Below are positions 12,876 to 21,098 of a stretch of 64,000 nucleotides of DNA, piece after piece (within the stretch, counting starts at the first letter, position 1; each line of letters opens with the position of its first letter). The DNA is from Rhizobiaceae bacterium (lineage in GTDB: Bacteria; Pseudomonadota; Alphaproteobacteria; Rhizobiales; Rhizobiaceae). A program made the position numbers and the translations under genes. Location of the stretch: the NCBI GenBank assembly GCA_039977975.1, contig JBDWCD010000010.1:20939-84938 (forward strand), given 5' to 3'. The notes under the pieces were generated by a model. That model was not told the origin of the DNA, ran no database searches, and saw only the letters and a program-made list of their open reading frames with translations.

Positions 12876-15800
12876 TTACCGGGCTGGCAGGATTTCCAGA
12901 AAGCCGGAGGCCGTCCGGGCGGAAAATTGCGGGCGATACATATCTTCCACGCTGGCCGCCGGATGGGCGTAACGTCCCGGGGTAACGGCGCGCACCACAT
13001 AGGCCAGATTGAAACTGCGTGACTTGCCAACATTGCGCTGAAGGGCGGCGAGGAAGCGGTCACTGCGGAACTCGCTGTGGCTGATCTGCACTTGCCCGAG
13101 CCAGTCAAAATTTTCCAACTGCGCCGACTGTACCAGTTGCGGATTGTCGATCTCAAAACCTCCGGGCAACAGGTCGCTGACCATTATCTGAGACGCCAGG
13201 TTGCTGAATTCCGAGACTGTCAGCACCACAACAAAGCGCTGGTTCTGATGCACATTGTTGAGCGACGCCTCGCTGCCGTCGAGATTGTAGTAGTGCCGCT
13301 TGATTTCATAGCCTTCGGAACTGGCCGGCAGTGCAACAAGGGGAGAGGCATATTTGGTGACGATTGCAGAGACCGGCTTGGACGTGCGGTTAACCACCGA
13401 CAGTGGCTCGGCCAGCAATTCAGCGCCGGGCAGCTTTTCCTTCAACGCCCCTACACGGGTTTGATTGTTGACCGTGAGTTGCAGAGTGCGATTGGCTTCT
13501 TCAACGGCCCGTGCGGCGAGAACCAGCCAGGCATCTTCCTGTGTGGATGTGTAGCTGCGGTGATCCATTTCACTGTCGATAAATTTCAGCAGGTCGGGAA
13601 CCATCGAGCGGACATTTGGCGTTTCTGCAGCAAGTGCCAGCATGGCCGCCCCGTCGCGCAACAGTGAACCGTAATAGTCGTTCTTGTAATTGATCGCCAG
13701 GCTTCTGTTCGCCATGTCCAAAGCGGAGGCAAATGTGTTGCTGCTGCGCTGTTGCTCATTATACAGCGACAGGGCAGCGGCCAGATGGGCGCGTGCCAGC
13801 GGCGTCTTGAACGAGGCGATCTTGGTATCGGCGAAATATCGCAGGTCCGAGGCCGATGCCATGCGGTTGCGCGCCAGAACGTAAAGACTGTAGGCCTGCG
13901 CATCCCCGGAGCCGGTTATCTTGTTCTGAAAGGCAAGGCGGTTTTGCAGGTTCTGGATTGCCAGGCGCATGGCCTGTTCCGGCACGGTGTAGGATTTCTC
14001 CCGCGCCCGGGTGAGGAAATCGCTGATATAGGCATCCAGCCACAGATCACCGCTGCCAGGTCCCCAAAGCCCAAAGCCGCCACTGGCCGACTGGAACGTG
14101 ACCACCCGCTGGATCGCCTTGTCGATCCGCTCGCTCAAATCTTCGGTGGCCGACAATGCGCTGGGCGCATCCAATTCCGACAGGTAAAGCAGGGGCAGGG
14201 CCCTGCTGACGGTCTGCTCAGCACAGCCATAGGGATAGCGGTCCAGTCGCATCAACAATGACGAGACGTCCAGCGATTTGTTGTAGCCGACATGAATGCC
14301 GACTTCTGATCCGGCGATATGGCTGTCTCCCAACAGGGATTTGTCGATTGTCACGCTGCCACCATTGGCGGCCAGCAGAAATTCAGATCGGGTCGCGACG
14401 GCGGGTGTTGCCGGGCGGATTGTCAGCGCGCGGGAGACCTGCGTTACAACATCACCATCGCGGCTAAGAGTGAATTCCAACTCTGCCGTCCCGGGATTTA
14501 TGGCATCGATGGTCAATGCCACCACCCGGCGCTCATTGGCCGCCAGGGTTACGCTGTCGGGCAGAGAGGTCAGCTTGAGCTGATCGGTGGCGGTCGCGGA
14601 CAGTTCGTAGGTGCCCGGCGTGCCGTCGGTATTGTGAATCTCGACCAGGGTTCTGGCCTGGTCCCCCGGTGCCAGCACTTTGGGCAGGCTGGAACTGAGC
14701 AGGATCGGATCGCGGATGATGACATCCTCGCTGGCCTGTCCAACCGCCTTGCTCGACCAGGCAACGGCCATGACGCGCGCCGTGCCATTGAACTGGGGAA
14801 TGTAAAAAGAGACCTGGCCGCGACCATCGGCATCCAGTCGCACGGCGCCTGAAAACAACGACAATAATTGTTCGGTGGGCGGACTGCCTTCGGCGGTCAT
14901 GCCCGGACCATCGCCGCCGGAGCGGATGCGCCCGAAAGCGCCCTGTGAGCCATCGATCAAGCGACCATAGAGATCGCGAATTTCAAGTCCCAATGCACGC
15001 TGACCGAAATACCACTCGGACGGATTGGGTGGCTGATAACGCGTCAGGTTGAGAATGCCGACATCAACCGCTGCAACGGTGACGAATATTTCTTCACCTT
15101 CTGCTGCACCAGCCACAGAAAGCGGAATATCCAGCAATGCATTGGGTTTGATTCTCTCCGGCAGGTCCAACGAAACGGCGAGCGATTTATCTCCCGGATC
15201 TACAGTCAGCCACGTGGTGCCGATGGAGCGAGCGGGCAGGCGGGATTGCTCAAGATTGCCCGGCTTGAACAGGGTTGCCGTGACATAGGCACCGGCGCCC
15301 CAATTGTCCTTCACAGGCACATTCACCTGATTGTCGCCGGCTTTCACCTTGACGCGGAAGGCATCGACAATGCGATCTGCGCCGATTGTCACCAGCAATT
15401 CACCTTGATGACGGGCAGAGACATTCAGCTGGGCAGATTCGCCAGGAAGATAGCTGGACTTGTCCAGGGCAATTTCCAGTGCATCCGGAGTTTCTGTCGA
15501 GCTGGTCTCCACATACCATCCGGAATTGAACTGCACGCTGGTGGCCGGCCCATCTGCGCGGGGGCTTTCTATCTGCAGGCGATAGCGCCCCCAGTCGACG
15601 GGGAATGAAAGGTCGGCAGCACGATCGGCTTTGACGTCAATTTGGCCATTTTGAACCAGTCGCGGCACTTCAACCGCCTCGTAACGCCAACTGGAATTGG
15701 AGCGATACCATTGATAATTGCGCTCGATGCGATGCAGCGACCAGTTGAGCCGGCTGATGTCCAGCCGTTTGTCGGCGGCATCAAGGGCGATGATTTTGAA

Positions 15801-18353
15801 ACCCGCCGTGCCACCTTCTTCTACTTGTCCGCCGCCGAATTGAGGTCGAATGCCGATCATCGGACCATTCGCAGCGACAGGGATTTTCAGTTGCCGTTCA
15901 ACGGCGCGGCCACCGGTTTCGCGCAGCCGCACGCTGATTTCAGCAACCAACGGACTTGTGGTTGAAGGCAGACGATCAAGAGCGGCTGCAAAACGGGCTT
16001 TGCCTTCTGCATTGGTCTTCGGCAATTTTTCAAGCTGGATGACCCGGCCACCAGCGCTTTCCGCTCCCGCCAGTCCAAACAGATAGCCTTTCGCAGCGGC
16101 GCGATCACGGCTTGGCTTGAGGCGGATTTCTCCCTCCAAGGACATGTCGGCGGCCGCCGCGCCATAGAGATATCTGCCGGTCAGATCGATGGCTGCAGGG
16201 GCGGCAGGCGACAGGTATTTTGCTGAACTGGCCAGGTCAAACTCAATCCGGTCGGGCACAAAGTCCTCGACCAGAAACTGTTTCTCTGAAAGAGCAGGCC
16301 CGTTGGGGTCGGCATGGACCCGCAGTTTCCAGACTCCGCGCATGGCATTGTCTGGCAATACAAAGGCCAGATCATGGCCCCCTAATTGTGCGTGTTTGGA
16401 GACTGTTCTATCAGCCTCAACATCATCCGGTCGCACCAACATGGCCGTCAGGGGCAGGTCGTTTATGGCTTCCACCTTGTGATCGCGGGCCAGGGTGACC
16501 AGATTGACCGTTTCACCGGGGCGGTAAATGCCGCGGTCGAGATAGGTATAGAGGTCCAGTGTTCCCGGGCTTGGGCGCCCCTCGACACCGCGATCCGACA
16601 GATCAAATCCGGCGCGGGAAATATCAAGAAATACAAAATCCGTGCCGTCATCCTGGGATCGTTTGGCGGTGACCAGGGTCGGCGCCAAACCAGCCGAGCC
16701 GCGCATCAGGCCGGGTTCAAAACGTGCTTTTCCTTCAGTATCTGTGACAGCAGTGCCGAGAACCTCATTGTTGCGGGCCAGCAGGTCTACTGACACGCCG
16801 GCCAGCGAAGCGCCGCTATCCAGCGAACTGGCAAATACGGTAAGGCCATCATTGCCTGCATAGGTGACAAGTCCGATGTCTGAAATCAGGAACCACTGGG
16901 TGGCGACCGGATCCCAACTGCTGCGTTTTTCTCCTTCGGCCTTGGCGGTGAGAATGTAGATGCCCGGTTGCCGGTCGGGCAATGCCTCGTCGATTGGGAA
17001 GCTGGTGACAACCTCACGGTTCAGGCTGCGCTGCAGATCGATCTTTCCTTTCCAGATGCTCTGTCCGATGTCGCTGGCGATTGTGTTGGATGTATAGTCG
17101 CGCAGCTGCGACAGGAATTGCGAGCCGGCTACGAGCCTGCTCAGCGATCTTTCGCCGACGCGCAACACTTCCAGCTCTGCAGACTGGGCATTGATGCCAA
17201 CAATTGGAATGCCGTGGCGGGCTGAACTGGCGAGGACAAAATTGTCGCCGGTAAACCGCACCGCTGCGGCGCGGTCGCGGATATAGGTGTTGAGCACAAC
17301 ATCGCGGTCGAGAATTTCCCCCGACTTTGCAGGAAGTCCCTGGCGCAAGACGAGCTTGTATTCCTGGCCGTGCTGCAGGCCTTCAACACAGAGGCGGGAA
17401 TTCGATACGGCCAGCGCCGGATTGGATAGGCCCTGCGTCGACAGGTAATTTTCATACGCGGTGTCTGCGGTATCCAACGGCTCCGAAAAGTCGACACAAA
17501 TGCGTGGGCTTGTCGTATCTGCTTCCACCGAGTGATTGGTTATCCTGAAACCCTTTTCCCGACGCAGTTGGGTAAAGGCGCGGCGCACATCGCCATTATC
17601 CTTCAGCTTCAGACTTGCGCGATAGGAGACAATCGCCTCCCGATAGAGGCGCTTTTGCACCAAAGCTTCGGCGACGGACACCAGTGCATCGGCGCGGACC
17701 CCTGCGGTGCGACTTTTTTGATAGGCACCGAGGGCGGCATTCATCGCCAGGTTTTGAAGATCGCGGTTGTACTTGCGATTTTTGCGCAACCAGCCACTCG
17801 CAGACCGGGATATCAACCACCAATTGGCTGGCAGGTCCGCAGATCGTGCCAGGACTTGGCCAAACATCTGTTGCGCCAGCACCAGATCGTTGCGCGCCAG
17901 GGCACTACGTCCGGTTTCGATGAGAAATTCGGTTGTTCCGAAGGATGTATCTGTCGACTGTTTTTTCAGCTTTGCGACAAATGCCTTGGCACTGTTCCTG
18001 AGCGGAGCAGGAACGCCGGTCAGTTCTGGAGGAGCCCCCAGGTCCGGCTCGCTGGAGATTTCCACCACCTTGCCTGCGGTTGCCCCTTCAAAGGCAATGA
18101 TCTGCGAATAGTCGCTCTTCAGGAAACACCAGTTAACGCGGGTGTTATAGGTAAAGGCCCGGCAGTCGCGGTCCTTGATGCAGATCAGCTTGCACTGATC
18201 GAGCGACACGTCTTTCTCAGATCGCAAGTCAAAGCCGAAATAGTCGGAATTCTCGCTGATCACAACTTGCCGCTTGTTTTCCTGTGCAATGGCATGTGAC
18301 CCGGCAAGGAGCGCGAGAACCAGGAATGCGATTAAAATACGTGCCAAACCCAT
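12876..18353 (-). CDS. Bacterial alpha-2-macroglobulin (YfhM/MG2 family) with N-terminal PAN/apple domain
   Basis: 1825 aa; signal peptide; PAN cysteines (CKLIC..DRDCRAFTY..WCFLK); YLDRGIYRPGE; AAVDVGIL; thioester YPYGCAEQ; FSGG/DLWLDAY; AVTPGRYAHPAA.VEDMYRP. Confidence 0.95.
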   Translation of the reverse strand: MGLARILIAFLVLALLAGSHAIAQENKRQVVISENSDYFGFDLRSEKDVSLDQCKLICIKDRDCRAFTYNTRVNWCFLKSDYSQIIAFEGATAGKVVEISSEPDLGAPPELTGVPAPLRNSAKAFVAKLKKQSTDTSFGTTEFLIETGRSALARNDLVLAQQMFGQVLARSADLPANWWLISRSASGWLRKNRKYNRDLQNLAMNAALGAYQKSRTAGVRADALVSVAEALVQKRLYREAIVSYRASLKLKDNGDVRRAFTQLRREKGFRITNHSVEADTTSPRICVDFSEPLDTADTAYENYLSTQGLSNPALAVSNSRLCVEGLQHGQEYKLVLRQGLPAKSGEILDRDVVLNTYIRDRAAAVRFTGDNFVLASSARHGIPIVGINAQSAELEVLRVGERSLSRLVAGSQFLSQLRDYTSNTIASDIGQSIWKGKIDLQRSLNREVVTSFPIDEALPDRQPGIYILTAKAEGEKRSSWDPVATQWFLISDIGLVTYAGNDGLTVFASSLDSGASLAGVSVDLLARNNEVLGTAVTDTEGKARFEPGLMRGSAGLAPTLVTAKRSQDDGTDFVFLDISRAGFDLSDRGVEGRPSPGTLDLYTYLDRGIYRPGETVNLVTLARDHKVEAINDLPLTAMLVRPDDVEADRTVSKHAQLGGHDLAFVLPDNAMRGVWKLRVHADPNGPALSEKQFLVEDFVPDRIEFDLASSAKYLSPAAPAAIDLTGRYLYGAAAADMSLEGEIRLKPSRDRAAAKGYLFGLAGAESAGGRVIQLEKLPKTNAEGKARFAAALDRLPSTTSPLVAEISVRLRETGGRAVERQLKIPVAANGPMIGIRPQFGGGQVEEGGTAGFKIIALDAADKRLDISRLNWSLHRIERNYQWYRSNSSWRYEAVEVPRLVQNGQIDVKADRAADLSFPVDWGRYRLQIESPRADGPATSVQFNSGWYVETSSTETPDALEIALDKSSYLPGESAQLNVSARHQGELLVTIGADRIVDAFRVKVKAGDNQVNVPVKDNWGAGAYVTATLFKPGNLEQSRLPARSIGTTWLTVDPGDKSLAVSLDLPERIKPNALLDIPLSVAGAAEGEEIFVTVAAVDVGILNLTRYQPPNPSEWYFGQRALGLEIRDLYGRLIDGSQGAFGRIRSGGDGPGMTAEGSPPTEQLLSLFSGAVRLDADGRGQVSFYIPQFNGTARVMAVAWSSKAVGQASEDVIIRDPILLSSSLPKVLAPGDQARTLVEIHNTDGTPGTYELSATATDQLKLTSLPDSVTLAANERRVVALTIDAINPGTAELEFTLSRDGDVVTQVSRALTIRPATPAVATRSEFLLAANGGSVTIDKSLLGDSHIAGSEVGIHVGYNKSLDVSSLLMRLDRYPYGCAEQTVSRALPLLYLSELDAPSALSATEDLSERIDKAIQRVVTFQSASGGFGLWGPGSGDLWLDAYISDFLTRAREKSYTVPEQAMRLAIQNLQNRLAFQNKITGSGDAQAYSLYVLARNRMASASDLRYFADTKIASFKTPLARAHLAAALSLYNEQQRSSNTFASALDMANRSLAINYKNDYYGSLLRDGAAMLALAAETPNVRSMVPDLLKFIDSEMDHRSYTSTQEDAWLVLAARAVEEANRTLQLTVNNQTRVGALKEKLPGAELLAEPLSVVNRTSKPVSAIVTKYASPLVALPASSEGYEIKRHYYNLDGSEASLNNVHQNQRFVVVLTVSEFSNLASQIMVSDLLPGGFEIDNPQLVQSAQLENFDWLGQVQISHSEFRSDRFLAALQRNVGKSRSFNLAYVVRAVTPGRYAHPAASVEDMYRPQFSARTASGFLEILPAR

Positions 18354-18571: not shown

Positions 18572-19033
18572 TCAGGCCAGCAGGCTGAGGCCCAATACAG
18601 TCAGCAGACCGGCGCCGATTCCGGCCACAATATCATCTGCCATAATGCCGACGCCGGCAGGCTTGAGATGTTCGGCGGCGCTGATCGGCCAGGGCTTGGT
18701 GATGTCGAGCAGTCGAAACAGCACGACGGCCGCAACAACGCTGAGCCATGTGGTCGTGCCAGCCAGAAACAGCGCCAGCAGGACACCGGCGGTTTCGTCG
18801 ATTACGACGATCTGCGGGTCTTCCAGTTTCATCTCGTGGGCCAGTTTATTGGCACTCCAGGTGCCGGCGCCAATCAATACAAGCAGCGCCGCCAGATGCC
18901 AAAGCCATGGCAGTTGGATGAGCAAAAAATGGGCCGGCAGCGACGCCAAGGTTCCCACTGTTCCAGGAGCCGTCGGCGACAGCCCGGTTCCAAACCATGT
19001 CGCCAGCCAAAAGTGTGGAGAGTTACGGGACAT
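18572..19033 (-). CDS. pgpA: Phosphatidylglycerophosphatase A
   Basis: LATWFGTGLSPTAPGTVGT, DPQIVVIDE, FRLLDITKPWPI, GIMADDIVAG. The ATG at 19033 is preferred; the ORF can extend to 19171. Confidence 0.92.
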   Translation of the reverse strand: MSRNSPHFWLATWFGTGLSPTAPGTVGTLASLPAHFLLIQLPWLWHLAALLVLIGAGTWSANKLAHEMKLEDPQIVVIDETAGVLLALFLAGTTTWLSVVAAVVLFRLLDITKPWPISAAEHLKPAGVGIMADDIVAGIGAGLLTVLGLSLLA

Positions 19034-19415
19034 GGAGAGCTGTGTACCTTGGATTCGGGAACAGGCCCATCCATGCCAGCATTTGGCGCAAATGAGAACC
19101 TCCCGTGGGCGGGTGTTTGGGAGCAGGGACCCGTTTGTCCAAGTGGCGTCGAACGGCAGGTGTGCGAACAAAGCGCCTGAATAGCTAGAGCTCTAAACGT
19201 CAGCTATCCGATGATGCAAAGGACCAGCATGCGTGCGGATTTGTGTTTGCATCCCTAGTAGGCACCAAATTAATCTGTTGGTCTTGGGAAGACGACCGCG
19301 ATGACACTTTTGGACATTGAATCCCAATGTGCGGATAACGTTTATTATTGCTGACCAAACGAGCAATTAGTTAATCAGCTCGACAGTCCTCAGTTTTCTC
19401 GATTCAATTAACACT

Positions 19416-20678
19416 TTATTCCGCAATGTCATCAATGCTTGGCCATCGACAGTGTACAAATCTTGCATCTGGAAGAACGGCTAATTTCACGGAATTGTTC
19501 ACGTTACCGCCCAGGATATAGTGTGTGTTATTATGACTCCCTAAATAGAATCCTACCATTCCTGTTCCAGCTCCAGGTGTCGCCATTTCGAAGAACCCAA
19601 TACACCCTATTCGTTTCGAAACTGCTTTCCCCCATCCGGACCAAGATGCACTTACTGCTGATCTAGATCCTACGTAACCAGCCTCTCGCATGACCCAGTT
19701 TACGAATATGCTAGCCCACGGAATTTGGTCCGCCGGAGGGATGTTGAGATTGTCGATGCTTTCAAAGTACTCAACTATGCGCGGATTATTCAACCGACCT
19801 TCAACTTCCTTTTGGCCGATCTCCGCGGCAGCGATTTCCAACCATTTCTTGGCTTCGCCCGAATTCCGGACGATCTCGGAAAGATCAAAACCTTCTTCCG
19901 GCGAAGGAGGATTCCAAGGCTCTACTGGGCCTGGCTCAATCGGAGGAATCGGATTTTCTCTTTCATAGAAAAACCAGACAGAGAATAATATTACAAAAGC
20001 TGACAACAAATATTTTATTGGGAATATGTGGATTAACCGAACGAACAACGAAGCCGGAGACGGGTCATCGGCCGCCTCGAAGGTTTTTGTATCACTTAAG
20101 TAGGGAACCCAGTACTTCTCGCAAAACCCCTCGTTCAAAAAGTATCCATGCGACGCATCATTATGCCAACGATCTCGAACTAAGGGCCGCTTAAACCCAA
20201 AACTCCCTGCCGAACCGTAACCCCAGGTTACACTCTGGGCCATCGCAGGCCATTTATCCGCGGTACCAATCTCATTAATTACGGGGCTATCAAATCTTTC
20301 TTGCGACCGTTGAAAAGGAAATGAATAAGGGACAACACTTCCACAAAAGATGATTCTGTGGAATTTTGCATCAAACTCATCATGAATGATGTTTGATATC
20401 ACGTATGTTCCGAAACTGTGCGCAATCACCGAAATCTGCGCATTAGGATATAGCTGACGTACAATCCTGATTTGTTCCCAAACCGTCTGGATTGCTTTTC
20501 GCCTAAAAAACGATACTGGCAAGAGAAATTGAATAAGATTTAGTCGACCATAGTTAGTCGCTTCAACGGCGAGGCCGGCTTTTTCCAACGGTTTACGGAC
20601 TCTACTTTGCCATATTGCATGATCTCGAATTCCATGGACCAGAAGCACTACATGGCTGGGCGCTTCTTCGGATTCCAT
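19416..20678 (-). CDS. Alpha/beta-hydrolase - TM - inactivated TIGR02594/NlpC-P60-like fusion protein
   Basis: N-terminal LLVHGIRD, IAHSFGT (GxSxG-like), CGSVV, TADKW, SHGYF; TM segment YLLSAFVILFSVWFFY; Pro-rich linker; C-terminal WLEIAAAEIG..NNPRIVEYF..PWASIFVNW..AG..SW..WG..GMVGFY..LGGNV..RWP. Visibly more AT-rich than its neighbours. Confidence 0.8.
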   Translation of the reverse strand: MESEEAPSHVVLLVHGIRDHAIWQSRVRKPLEKAGLAVEATNYGRLNLIQFLLPVSFFRRKAIQTVWEQIRIVRQLYPNAQISVIAHSFGTYVISNIIHDEFDAKFHRIIFCGSVVPYSFPFQRSQERFDSPVINEIGTADKWPAMAQSVTWGYGSAGSFGFKRPLVRDRWHNDASHGYFLNEGFCEKYWVPYLSDTKTFEAADDPSPASLFVRLIHIFPIKYLLSAFVILFSVWFFYERENPIPPIEPGPVEPWNPPSPEEGFDLSEIVRNSGEAKKWLEIAAAEIGQKEVEGRLNNPRIVEYFESIDNLNIPPADQIPWASIFVNWVMREAGYVGSRSAVSASWSGWGKAVSKRIGCIGFFEMATPGAGTGMVGFYLGSHNNTHYILGGNVNNSVKLAVLPDARFVHCRWPSIDDIAE

Positions 20679-21098
20679 CGAGCCTCCATCAATACAGAAT
20701 GAGCACTCGTACTCATTTGCCGCTTAGTAAAAATGATTGAGTCTTCAAATAGAGGACGTTTATTTTCCATGCAACCTTTGCAAAGGCTATCATTAGCAAT
20801 TCGGTAGTGATGGCACAGAGACTACACTCTATTGCATTCGATACTTCCCACCAATCAGGTAAAGCCGACTACCACAAACCCGCCGTTTGTCATAGTTTCC
20901 AAAATAGTCAAAATAGGCTCCATCCCGACGGTCGCCATCGTTCAATTCCACGCCCCCCGACCTCAATCAAGAACCCACCCGATGGTGTCTAATAGCTTTT
21001 GCTTATGGCGGAAGTGGAGAAGTAATACTGGCACTTTTGCAATTTCGTGTAATTATGGGGCGTTCGTCGACCTTGGGGTCGACTTGGGAGGAATCAGA

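Follow-up and report, generated by a model that had tools for sequence, protein, structure and literature searches.

Within the 64,000-nucleotide stretch of Rhizobiaceae DNA examined here (contig JBDWCD010000010.1, positions 20,939 to 84,938; below, the window), a single gene on the minus strand at 19416..20678 encodes P0001, a 420-residue protein that is a candidate one-protein envelope sensor-effector in biological conflict, whether anti-phage or inter-bacterial. This is the best-supported reading of its domains and relatives, and our confidence in it is evenly balanced. P0001 is predicted to join an apparently active, lipase-like hydrolase in the cytoplasm, through one transmembrane (TM) helix, to a catalytically dead NlpC/P60 domain in the periplasm, and the sensor-effector reading is favoured because relatives of both the hydrolase and the dead domain are shuffled with TIR, EAD1 and other domains. 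An earlier, sequence-only reading of this DNA had likewise suggested a sensor-effector, possibly anti-phage; the domain shuffling lends that suggestion strong circumstantial support, and the step from such a pattern to a function is still one that we infer.

Domain structure of P0001

The open reading frame (ORF) is complete and intact, comprising 420 codons plus a stop, with an ATG start codon (20676-20678) and a GGAGG sequence 4 nt 5' of it. All features given below for P0001 lie on the same, minus strand. Its first 212 residues (20043..20678) form a minimal alpha/beta-hydrolase, as judged from invariant residues, the predicted structure and structural searches. Across an alignment of 121 homologues, H15-G16, A86-H87-S88-F89, D141, H172 and H177 never vary and G90 hardly does; this set corresponds to the oxyanion HG motif (H15-G16; 20631-20636), the nucleophile elbow, the acid and the His of a serine hydrolase. 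The sequence-only reading had proposed a live Ser-Asp-His triad within the motifs AHSFG, TADKW and SHGYF, all of which are present in P0001, and the invariance of the corresponding residues, the nucleophile Ser88 (20415-20417), Asp141 (20256-20258) and His177 (20148-20150), supports that proposal.

Matches of the N-terminal half to Pfam are weak and below threshold (Hydrolase_4, 23.1 bits against a cut-off of 27; DUF676, 18.1 bits against a cut-off of 20.3), with a further weak similarity to the Tle3 lipase family, and the hydrolase is a divergent subfamily that has no Pfam model. A sequence search of the PDB with the whole protein gave one marginal match, to a monoacylglycerol lipase (MGL). 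In the AlphaFold (AF2) model, residues 10-245, including a TM helix at 221-241, have a predicted local distance difference test score (pLDDT) above 90, and a Foldseek search with this hydrolase model finds MGLs (3jwe, 6eic) at E ~1e-6, the best target coverage being given by the lid-less minimal lipases LipA (1isp) and Lip_vut1 (6nkc), with TM-scores on the target (TMt) of 0.65-0.73. These enzymes share the lid-less core, the HG motif and the Ser-Asp-His triad with P0001, but they are soluble or secreted, lack both the TM helix and the ectodomain, and are only 10-20% identical to it. The N-terminal domain of P0001 is accordingly modelled as a lid-less, lipase-like alpha/beta-hydrolase, apparently active and with its catalytic apparatus intact.

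Directly after the hydrolase, hydropathy analysis finds the one hydrophobic helix of the protein (residues ~216-241, 19956..20033; helix 221-241 in the AF2 model), and this is followed by a Pro-rich, probably periplasmic linker (residues 242-262, 19893..19955) with 9 Pro per 21 residues, so that both the single helix and the linker that had been noted from the sequence are confirmed. The linker is modelled with low pLDDT and is the least constrained segment of P0001. No signal peptide was detected on the protein.

The remainder of P0001 (residues 263-420; 19419..19892) is a predicted periplasmic pseudo-peptidase of the TIGR02594 / NlpC-P60 fold. Residues 279-412 match the NCBIfam model TIGR02594 across its whole profile (positions 2-132 of 132) at 82.9 bits, above the cut-off of 70.55, which bears out the earlier description of the domain as TIGR02594-like, and the C-terminal part also matches the C-terminus of PHROG 1259, 'baseplate hub subunit and tail lysozyme' (4e-20). 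In a first AF2 run with the family alignment the C-terminal half was modelled with pLDDT below 50, because just 4 alignment rows covered it; rerun with a domain-specific alignment, the domain reaches a pLDDT of 92.4. Foldseek places this model with the NlpC/P60 autolysins 7cfl (E 1e-4, TMt 0.68) and 9ubf, as well as with MepS (8xup), LytE (8i2e) and CHAP lysins, confirming the NlpC/P60 fold.

An exhaustive HMMER search with residues 263-420 returned 4379 relatives. Among 153 representative domains, the position of Ala322 in P0001 (19713-19715) is occupied by Cys in 113, that of Met374 (19557-19559) by His in 135, and both residues are present in 112; when the family profile is aligned with the NlpC/P60 structure of CwlO, the corresponding motifs, PWC and GHVGF, coincide with its catalytic Cys and His. 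The replacement of Cys by Ala and of His by Met at catalytic positions, as claimed from the sequence, is confirmed by both the CwlO alignment and the tally. P0001 has in addition lost the Gln of GGNQ, a third catalytic residue, which is replaced by Val393 (19500-19502), and this Gln co-varies with Cys and His, the pattern C-H-N-Q being found in 109 of the 153 domains. At these four positions P0001 and its three close orthologues show A-M-N-V, T-M-N-V, S-T-N-I and S-V-N-V, so that the orthologues likewise lack Cys and His. The loss is not unique to this small group, since about a quarter of the nearest representatives (41 of 153) share it. Elsewhere in the domain 31 positions are invariant or nearly so, and P0001 keeps 30 of them, the sole change being Thr76 to Ser.

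The conservation of the dead domain is also evident from the substitutions among the four orthologues. The proportion of nonsynonymous differences (pN) is 0.19-0.27 in the dead domain; the range is 0.15-0.22 for the hydrolase and 0.39-0.55 for the TM helix plus linker, with the proportion of synonymous differences (pS) saturated at 0.75-0.94. The low pN and the retained signature residues argue for a pseudo-enzyme that is being maintained, in agreement with the earlier suggestion of selection and not decay; pseudogene decay of the domain is rejected in view of the loss that the orthologues share and of the pN and pS values. We take the C-terminal domain of P0001 to be a pseudo-enzyme under purifying selection in which all three catalytic residues have been replaced.

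Modularity of the two halves

The full architecture of P0001 occurs in just three database proteins, at 60-65% identity, P0241 being a divergent fifth protein of the hydrolase-TM-domain type. The N-terminal ~220 residues recur at 50-60% identity, in combination with other partners, in more than 500 proteins, and the family as a whole extends over more than 500 database clusters, with 155 matches among species-representative genomes. In nearly all of the 121 best homologues the hydrolase is followed by one TM helix within 3-30 residues, and around this core the N-terminal extensions vary from 0 to 445 residues and the extensions beyond the helix from 0 to 418.

Fused Pfam domains were tallied in 107 family members, and include pentapeptide repeats (10 members), TIR (9-12), SH3_3 (6-8) and EAD1 (2), as well as SEFIR, PAN, Metallophos, TPR, PNP_UDP and CarboxypepD_reg in one member each. 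The fusions are polar with respect to the membrane helix: in ten members scanned individually, TIR, SEFIR, EAD1, PNP_UDP and Metallophos are N-terminal of the hydrolase, and pentapeptide repeats, SH3, PAN and TPR lie beyond the TM helix. Lys and Arg are more abundant on the N-terminal flank of the helix in 63 family members, less abundant in 16 and tied in 34. Fusion polarity and the positive-inside count both indicate that the hydrolase is inside and the C-terminal domain outside, and P0001 is likely to be a bitopic inner-membrane protein, N-in and C-out, as had been supposed when a cytoplasmic hydrolase and a periplasmic pseudo-peptidase were first proposed. The reverse topology, with a periplasmic hydrolase, is rejected on the same two grounds.

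This topology bears on the idea that P0001 is a secreted or contact-delivered polymorphic toxin, a lipase acting on other cells. The weak Pfam similarity to the Tle3 and DUF676 lipase families would fit such a role, as would the known occurrence of TIGR02594 domains in type VI secretion system (T6SS) effectors, but P0001 lacks a signal peptide as well as any trafficking domain of the PAAR, VgrG, Rhs or LXG type, its TM helix is internal with N-in topology, neither an immunity gene nor a secretion locus is adjacent, and TIR and EAD1 are fused on the cytoplasmic, hydrolase side of the membrane, so that a toxin of this kind is barely credible.

The dead domain shows a comparable modularity. A hydrophobic anchor precedes 30 of the 41 TIGR02594-like domains that lack Cys and/or His, as opposed to 5 of the 112 intact ones. 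In P0126 and P0187 the dead domain is joined to TIR through a TM helix (TIR-TM-dead domain), and P0203 has the corresponding arrangement with EAD1 (EAD1-TM-domain); EAD1 is thus carried by this relative of the peptidase domain and also by the hydrolase relatives P0009 and P0033. When the catalytic columns are left out of the alignment, the resulting tree unites 36 of the 41 deficient domains in a single 37-row group, whose support is moderate (SH-aLRT, the Shimodaira-Hasegawa-like approximate likelihood ratio test, 91; branch length 0.046). The pattern is compatible with, and not proof of, a single subfamily, anchored in the membrane and lacking Cys, that afterwards passed between effectors. 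These architectures show that the two halves of P0001 are recombined independently with immunity modules.

The intact relatives of the domain occur in a lytic setting. Phages carry the peptidase domain alone, typically in tail baseplate hubs (365 records), and the hydrolase in none; the best intact relative of the C-terminal domain, P0122 (655 aa), is a multi-lysin composed of Phage_lysozyme, CHAP, two LysM and a TIGR02594/NlpC-P60 domain, and displays the usual lytic context of TIGR02594. TIGR02594 domains also occur in T6SS effectors (PMC13055248). Such relatives, phage baseplate-hub tail lysozymes and T6SS effectors (PMC13055248), would suit a decoy or shield, in which the pseudo-peptidase occupies stem-peptide sites or binds incoming TIGR02594 enzymes, for instance phage tail-tip lysins or T6SS amidases, and so blocks a breach of the wall much as superinfection exclusion or immunity would, with the hydrolase as an accessory or in an unrelated role. 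The strong conservation of the dead domain and a Pro-rich tether long enough to reach the wall are consistent with this role, but it leaves unexplained why the hydrolase and TM core, with its invariant triad, is the most conserved and most widely shared part of the protein, and it does not account for the pairing of this dead domain with TIR and EAD1. To our knowledge, moreover, the immunity proteins that counter effectors of this wall-degrading kind are mostly small binders with no relation to the enzyme, as opposed to inactivated copies of it, and we regard a decoy as very unlikely.

Genomic setting and acquisition

The P0001 gene is the only cargo of a 1981-bp low-GC insertion (19035..21015) between pgpA and a TAXI-TRAP operon. 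Two congeners keep the order of an alpha-2-macroglobulin (A2M)-like gene, pgpA and the TAXI-TRAP operon, with ~35 bp in place of the 1981 bp. The earlier observation that the gene and its flanks are AT-rich is borne out, the GC fraction of the insertion being 0.467 against 0.554 for the window; over the gene itself it is ~0.45, against ~0.57 in the flanks. The ends of the insertion have no repeats of 10 nt or more, and neither a target-site duplication nor terminal inverted repeats were found; a scan for promoters and terminators at the locus gave results no better than shuffled sequences. An independent assembly contig reproduces the locus exactly. When the hydrolase module was searched for in 41 genomes (this one and 40 relatives), it was matched here and in one congener, at 42% identity, and the hydrolase is also present on rhizobial megaplasmids. 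The empty site in two congeners, the low GC content and the patchy distribution indicate that the gene was acquired horizontally, as a solitary acquisition in this genome.

The pgpA-like ORF beside the insertion (18572-19171 (-), 199 aa as listed) has probably been listed with too long a 5' end. Its resemblance to the pgpA of the congeners ends at ~19034 (~residue 46), exactly where the low-GC insertion starts, and because the similarity stops there the insertion may have replaced the native region upstream of pgpA. On the other side of pgpA, the ORF at 12876-18353 (-) encodes an 1825-aa A2M-like protein, identified by eye and syntenic in the congeners, whose N-terminus reads like a PAN/Apple-type Cys motif (CKLICIKDRDCRAFTYNTRVNWCFLK). 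A second member of the hydrolase family is found on the same contig outside the window, at ~142.6-145.0 kb (L109:8598-10958 (+)); this 786-aa protein consists of a hydrolase 37% identical to that of P0001 and a TM helix, followed by a ~530-aa C-terminal region, has no PADLOC match, and lies on a stretch of lower GC content (~0.50 versus 0.55-0.58).

That the gene stands alone, as first described, holds for this genome but not for the three close orthologues, in which it is arranged in an operon-like manner with a Type III methyltransferase. The gene of P0004 overlaps that of a 1023-aa Type III restriction subunit (Res) on one side and has that of a 989-aa Type III methyltransferase (Mod; PADLOC MTase_III, 1196 bits) on the other, with a DUF4357-HNH nuclease and a GajB-like UvrD helicase next at the locus; P0002 and P0003 are encoded between a GmrSD-like protein and the same methyltransferase. 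All three orthologue genes are directly upstream of the methyltransferase gene, overlapping or abutting it, and the methyltransferase is 74-80% identical among these loci. A 53-55-aa ORF is located between the P0004 orthologue and the methyltransferase at L012:6108-6269 and L013:5258-5425; it is absent at L014 and L015, where the orthologue and methyltransferase genes overlap directly.

This arrangement raises the alternative that P0001 works just with Type III restriction-modification or GmrSD genes and is, in this genome, a recently transferred and functionless remnant. In favour of such an orphaned passenger, a Type III Mod that is 74-80% identical among the loci overlaps or adjoins the gene in all three orthologues, and such Mod and Res genes are absent from this genome; a tblastn search of the window likewise found no remnants of the Res, Mod or HNH genes of the orthologues. 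Against it, the ORF is intact and has a good Shine-Dalgarno sequence, the upstream partner of the orthologues varies between Res and the GmrSD-like protein, and 25 loci of the near branch in named genomes have no common neighbour. No neighbour family recurs at those 25 loci, which argues that the gene is normally autonomous, and we consider the orphaned passenger quite improbable.

Although no family recurs among them, the 91 ORFs nearest to the gene at the 25 loci, a tally made without a matched control set, include GajA (1.8e-243) with GajB (1.3e-232), both nearly complete, DndB with DndC, and a class I prokaryotic Argonaute (6e-202) accompanied by its TIR-APAZ partner (4.6e-136); MTase_III, MTase_II, mad3 and two AriA-like proteins are also among them. 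The surroundings of other family members contain a Type ISP enzyme together with DUF3631, or caspase, trypsin, patatin and IS110, or a Mu transposase with an Eco57I-type enzyme. The homologues appear to be situated in defence or variable islands and not in vertically inherited housekeeping contexts.

Two further groups of relatives have conserved upstream genes of their own. A distant hydrolase and TM branch of 23 loci, mainly from Burkholderiales and Pseudomonas and 30-42% identical (L051:5463-6825, L052, L057, L058, L060, L061, L063, L064 and others), has two conserved overlapping genes, ~340 aa and ~140 aa, upstream at every locus; neither has a Pfam or PADLOC match, and the branch is a candidate for an uncharacterised three-gene system. 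Seven loci, mostly from Planctomycetota (Pirellulaceae, Stieleria; L073:5569-6564, L074, L075, L081, L082, L098, L101), have another upstream gene in common, 199-343 aa in length; the single copy scanned, that of L073 (332 aa), matches nothing in Pfam or PADLOC.

Proposed function and related systems

In the proposed mechanism, the pseudo-peptidase would bind peptidoglycan stem peptides, wall fragments or a wall-attacking protein of an invader, such as a phage tail lysin; in phages, the wall peptidase of the tail tip belongs to this domain family, a link that speaks for the proposal. A local breach of the wall would change this binding, and the signal would pass through the single helix, most simply by clustering, to switch on the membrane-proximal hydrolase. 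Once active, the hydrolase would cleave inner-leaflet phospholipids or another ester, resulting in membrane damage and in abortive infection or growth arrest.

Several observations weigh against this sensor-effector reading. Many family members consist of the hydrolase and TM helix with no more than 35 residues outside the membrane, so that the core works without an ectodomain and the ectodomain of P0001 could merely localise the protein; from these minimal members, the periplasmic domain is seen to be an add-on and not an obligatory sensor. The group uniting the dead domains has only the moderate tree support given above, and the identities of the Foldseek matches to the hydrolase are just 10-20%. 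PADLOC-DB v2 gives 0 matches for P0001, and among the hydrolase variants, the conserved partners and the paralogue there is none either, solely the TIR parts of relatives being matched. The Type III Mod and Res of the orthologues are missing here, and if P0001 needs the Mod, the copy in this genome may be inert. The uncontrolled tally of defence neighbours and the locus of P0094, which looks metabolic and not defensive, point the same way. Finally, 0 reads from three RNA sequencing runs labelled as this species mapped to a 4-kb stretch that includes the flanking housekeeping genes; the runs, which probably do not contain this bacterium, are uninformative on expression.

The minimal forms would fit a housekeeping or localising role of P0001, as a constitutive remodeller of membrane lipids, lipoproteins or esters whose dead domain is a passive tether to the sacculus, free of signalling and of any part in conflict. 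Those forms need no ectodomain; SH3_3, PAN and the dead NlpC/P60 domain are all plausible anchors to the wall or its glycans, the family has no PADLOC model, one context (P0094) is metabolic, and the P0001 gene adjoins pgpA, a gene of lipid metabolism. However, the adjacency to pgpA is an accident of insertion, as the congeners have no P0001 gene at this site, and both the sporadic distribution and the low GC content are at odds with a housekeeping gene. The fusions to TIR, SEFIR, EAD1 and PNP likewise fit poorly, and neighbours in defence islands appear to be frequent. On this evidence a housekeeping role is unlikely, yet it carries some weight.

P0001 differs from known lipid-directed effectors in carrying its putative input in the same chain. 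CapV, the patatin of CBASS, is a soluble phospholipase effector activated by a nucleotide; in 'Rst_Hydrolase-3Tm', a system of DefenseFinder, a hydrolase is combined with TM segments. Both have in common with P0001 the proposed hydrolysis of membrane lipids as an abortive-infection output, but PADLOC models detect no sequence relationship of either to it, and in P0001 hydrolase, TM helix and putative input are combined in one polypeptide. Among the modules of conflict systems, an alpha/beta-hydrolase joined to adaptor domains has been predicted to be an effector acting on membrane lipids (PMC8195603). The NTP-dependent or EAD-coupled conflict systems of Kaur, Burroughs, Iyer and Aravind (eLife 2020, PMC7159879; eLife 2021, PMC8195603) likewise combine a constant module with rapidly varying domains, and relatives of P0001 are fused to EAD1, TIR and PNP; P0001 itself, in contrast, has no EAD, and neither an NTPase nor a vWA-MoxR core is nearby. 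A TM-spanning hydrolase architecture with a dead NlpC/P60 partner was not found in the texts of these two papers (PMC7159879, PMC8195603), nor was the combination of hydrolase, TM helix and dead NlpC/P60 domain found described in the literature. P0001 represents a new architecture among proteins of an already known kind, the modular effectors of conflict systems.

The C-terminal 158 residues of P0001 share profile, fold and signature with the TIGR02594 peptidases of phage tail baseplate hubs and T6SS effectors, but whereas typical TIGR02594 proteins are short soluble lysins or domains of tail or effector proteins, the domain of P0001 is dead, tethered to the cell's own inner membrane and fused to a hydrolase. 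A precedent for binding by such a domain is RipD of Mycobacterium tuberculosis, a non-catalytic NlpC/P60 domain that binds peptidoglycan (a literature search for RipD returned nothing). RipD resembles the P0001 domain in lacking the catalytic residues; it is, however, a secreted, single-domain protein that is not of the TIGR02594 type and has no effector across the membrane. A similar layout is seen in Drosophila PGRP-LC, a single-pass receptor in which an outer domain with a catalytically inactive peptidoglycan-hydrolase fold is coupled to an inner signalling domain. Like P0001, PGRP-LC and the Toll-like TIR receptors, the latter with a repeat sensor outside, are single-pass proteins in which an outer domain is coupled to an inner one, an analogy of function only: PGRP-LC combines an amidase_2 fold with an inner adaptor and P0001 an NlpC/P60 fold with an inner enzyme, and ligand binding by P0001 is putative.

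By this analogy, the hydrolase and TM, TIR-TM and EAD1-TM proteins that share ectodomains might constitute an unrecognised class of single-pass, envelope-spanning immune receptors, a prokaryotic counterpart of PGRP-LC and Toll, a suggestion that we put forward tentatively and regard as doubtful. In such receptors a periplasmic pseudo-hydrolase (or SH3, PAN or pentapeptide domain) would detect the breach that a phage tail lysin or a T6SS attack opens in the wall, and directly activate a cytoplasmic lipase or NADase before the genome of the invader is expressed. Most characterised bacterial immune sensors are cytoplasmic and detect nucleic acids or phage proteins made after entry. If the suggestion were true, bacteria could sense infection or attack at the envelope stage, P0001 would be a single-gene system suited to testing this, the large unannotated family of hydrolase and TM proteins would have a role, and the use of a dead peptidoglycan hydrolase as a receptor, as in insect PGRP-LC, would have a bacterial case. 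Domains of the TIGR02594 type that lack Cys would, moreover, be flagged as putative binding modules, where annotation pipelines now name them like lysins.

A cluster of Cys-less TIGR02594-like domains is formed by ~15 proteins of ~300-330 aa (including P0123, P0124, P0129, P0143, P0151, P0153, P0158, P0161 and P0176), which share an N-terminal region of ~150 aa preceding the domain. In this cluster, to which the EAD1 protein P0203 belongs, Cys is replaced by Ser, Asn, Thr or Asp with His and Gln retained. A membrane anchor can be detected at the N-terminus in about half of the proteins, and the cluster may represent either variants with Ser as nucleophile or binding modules.

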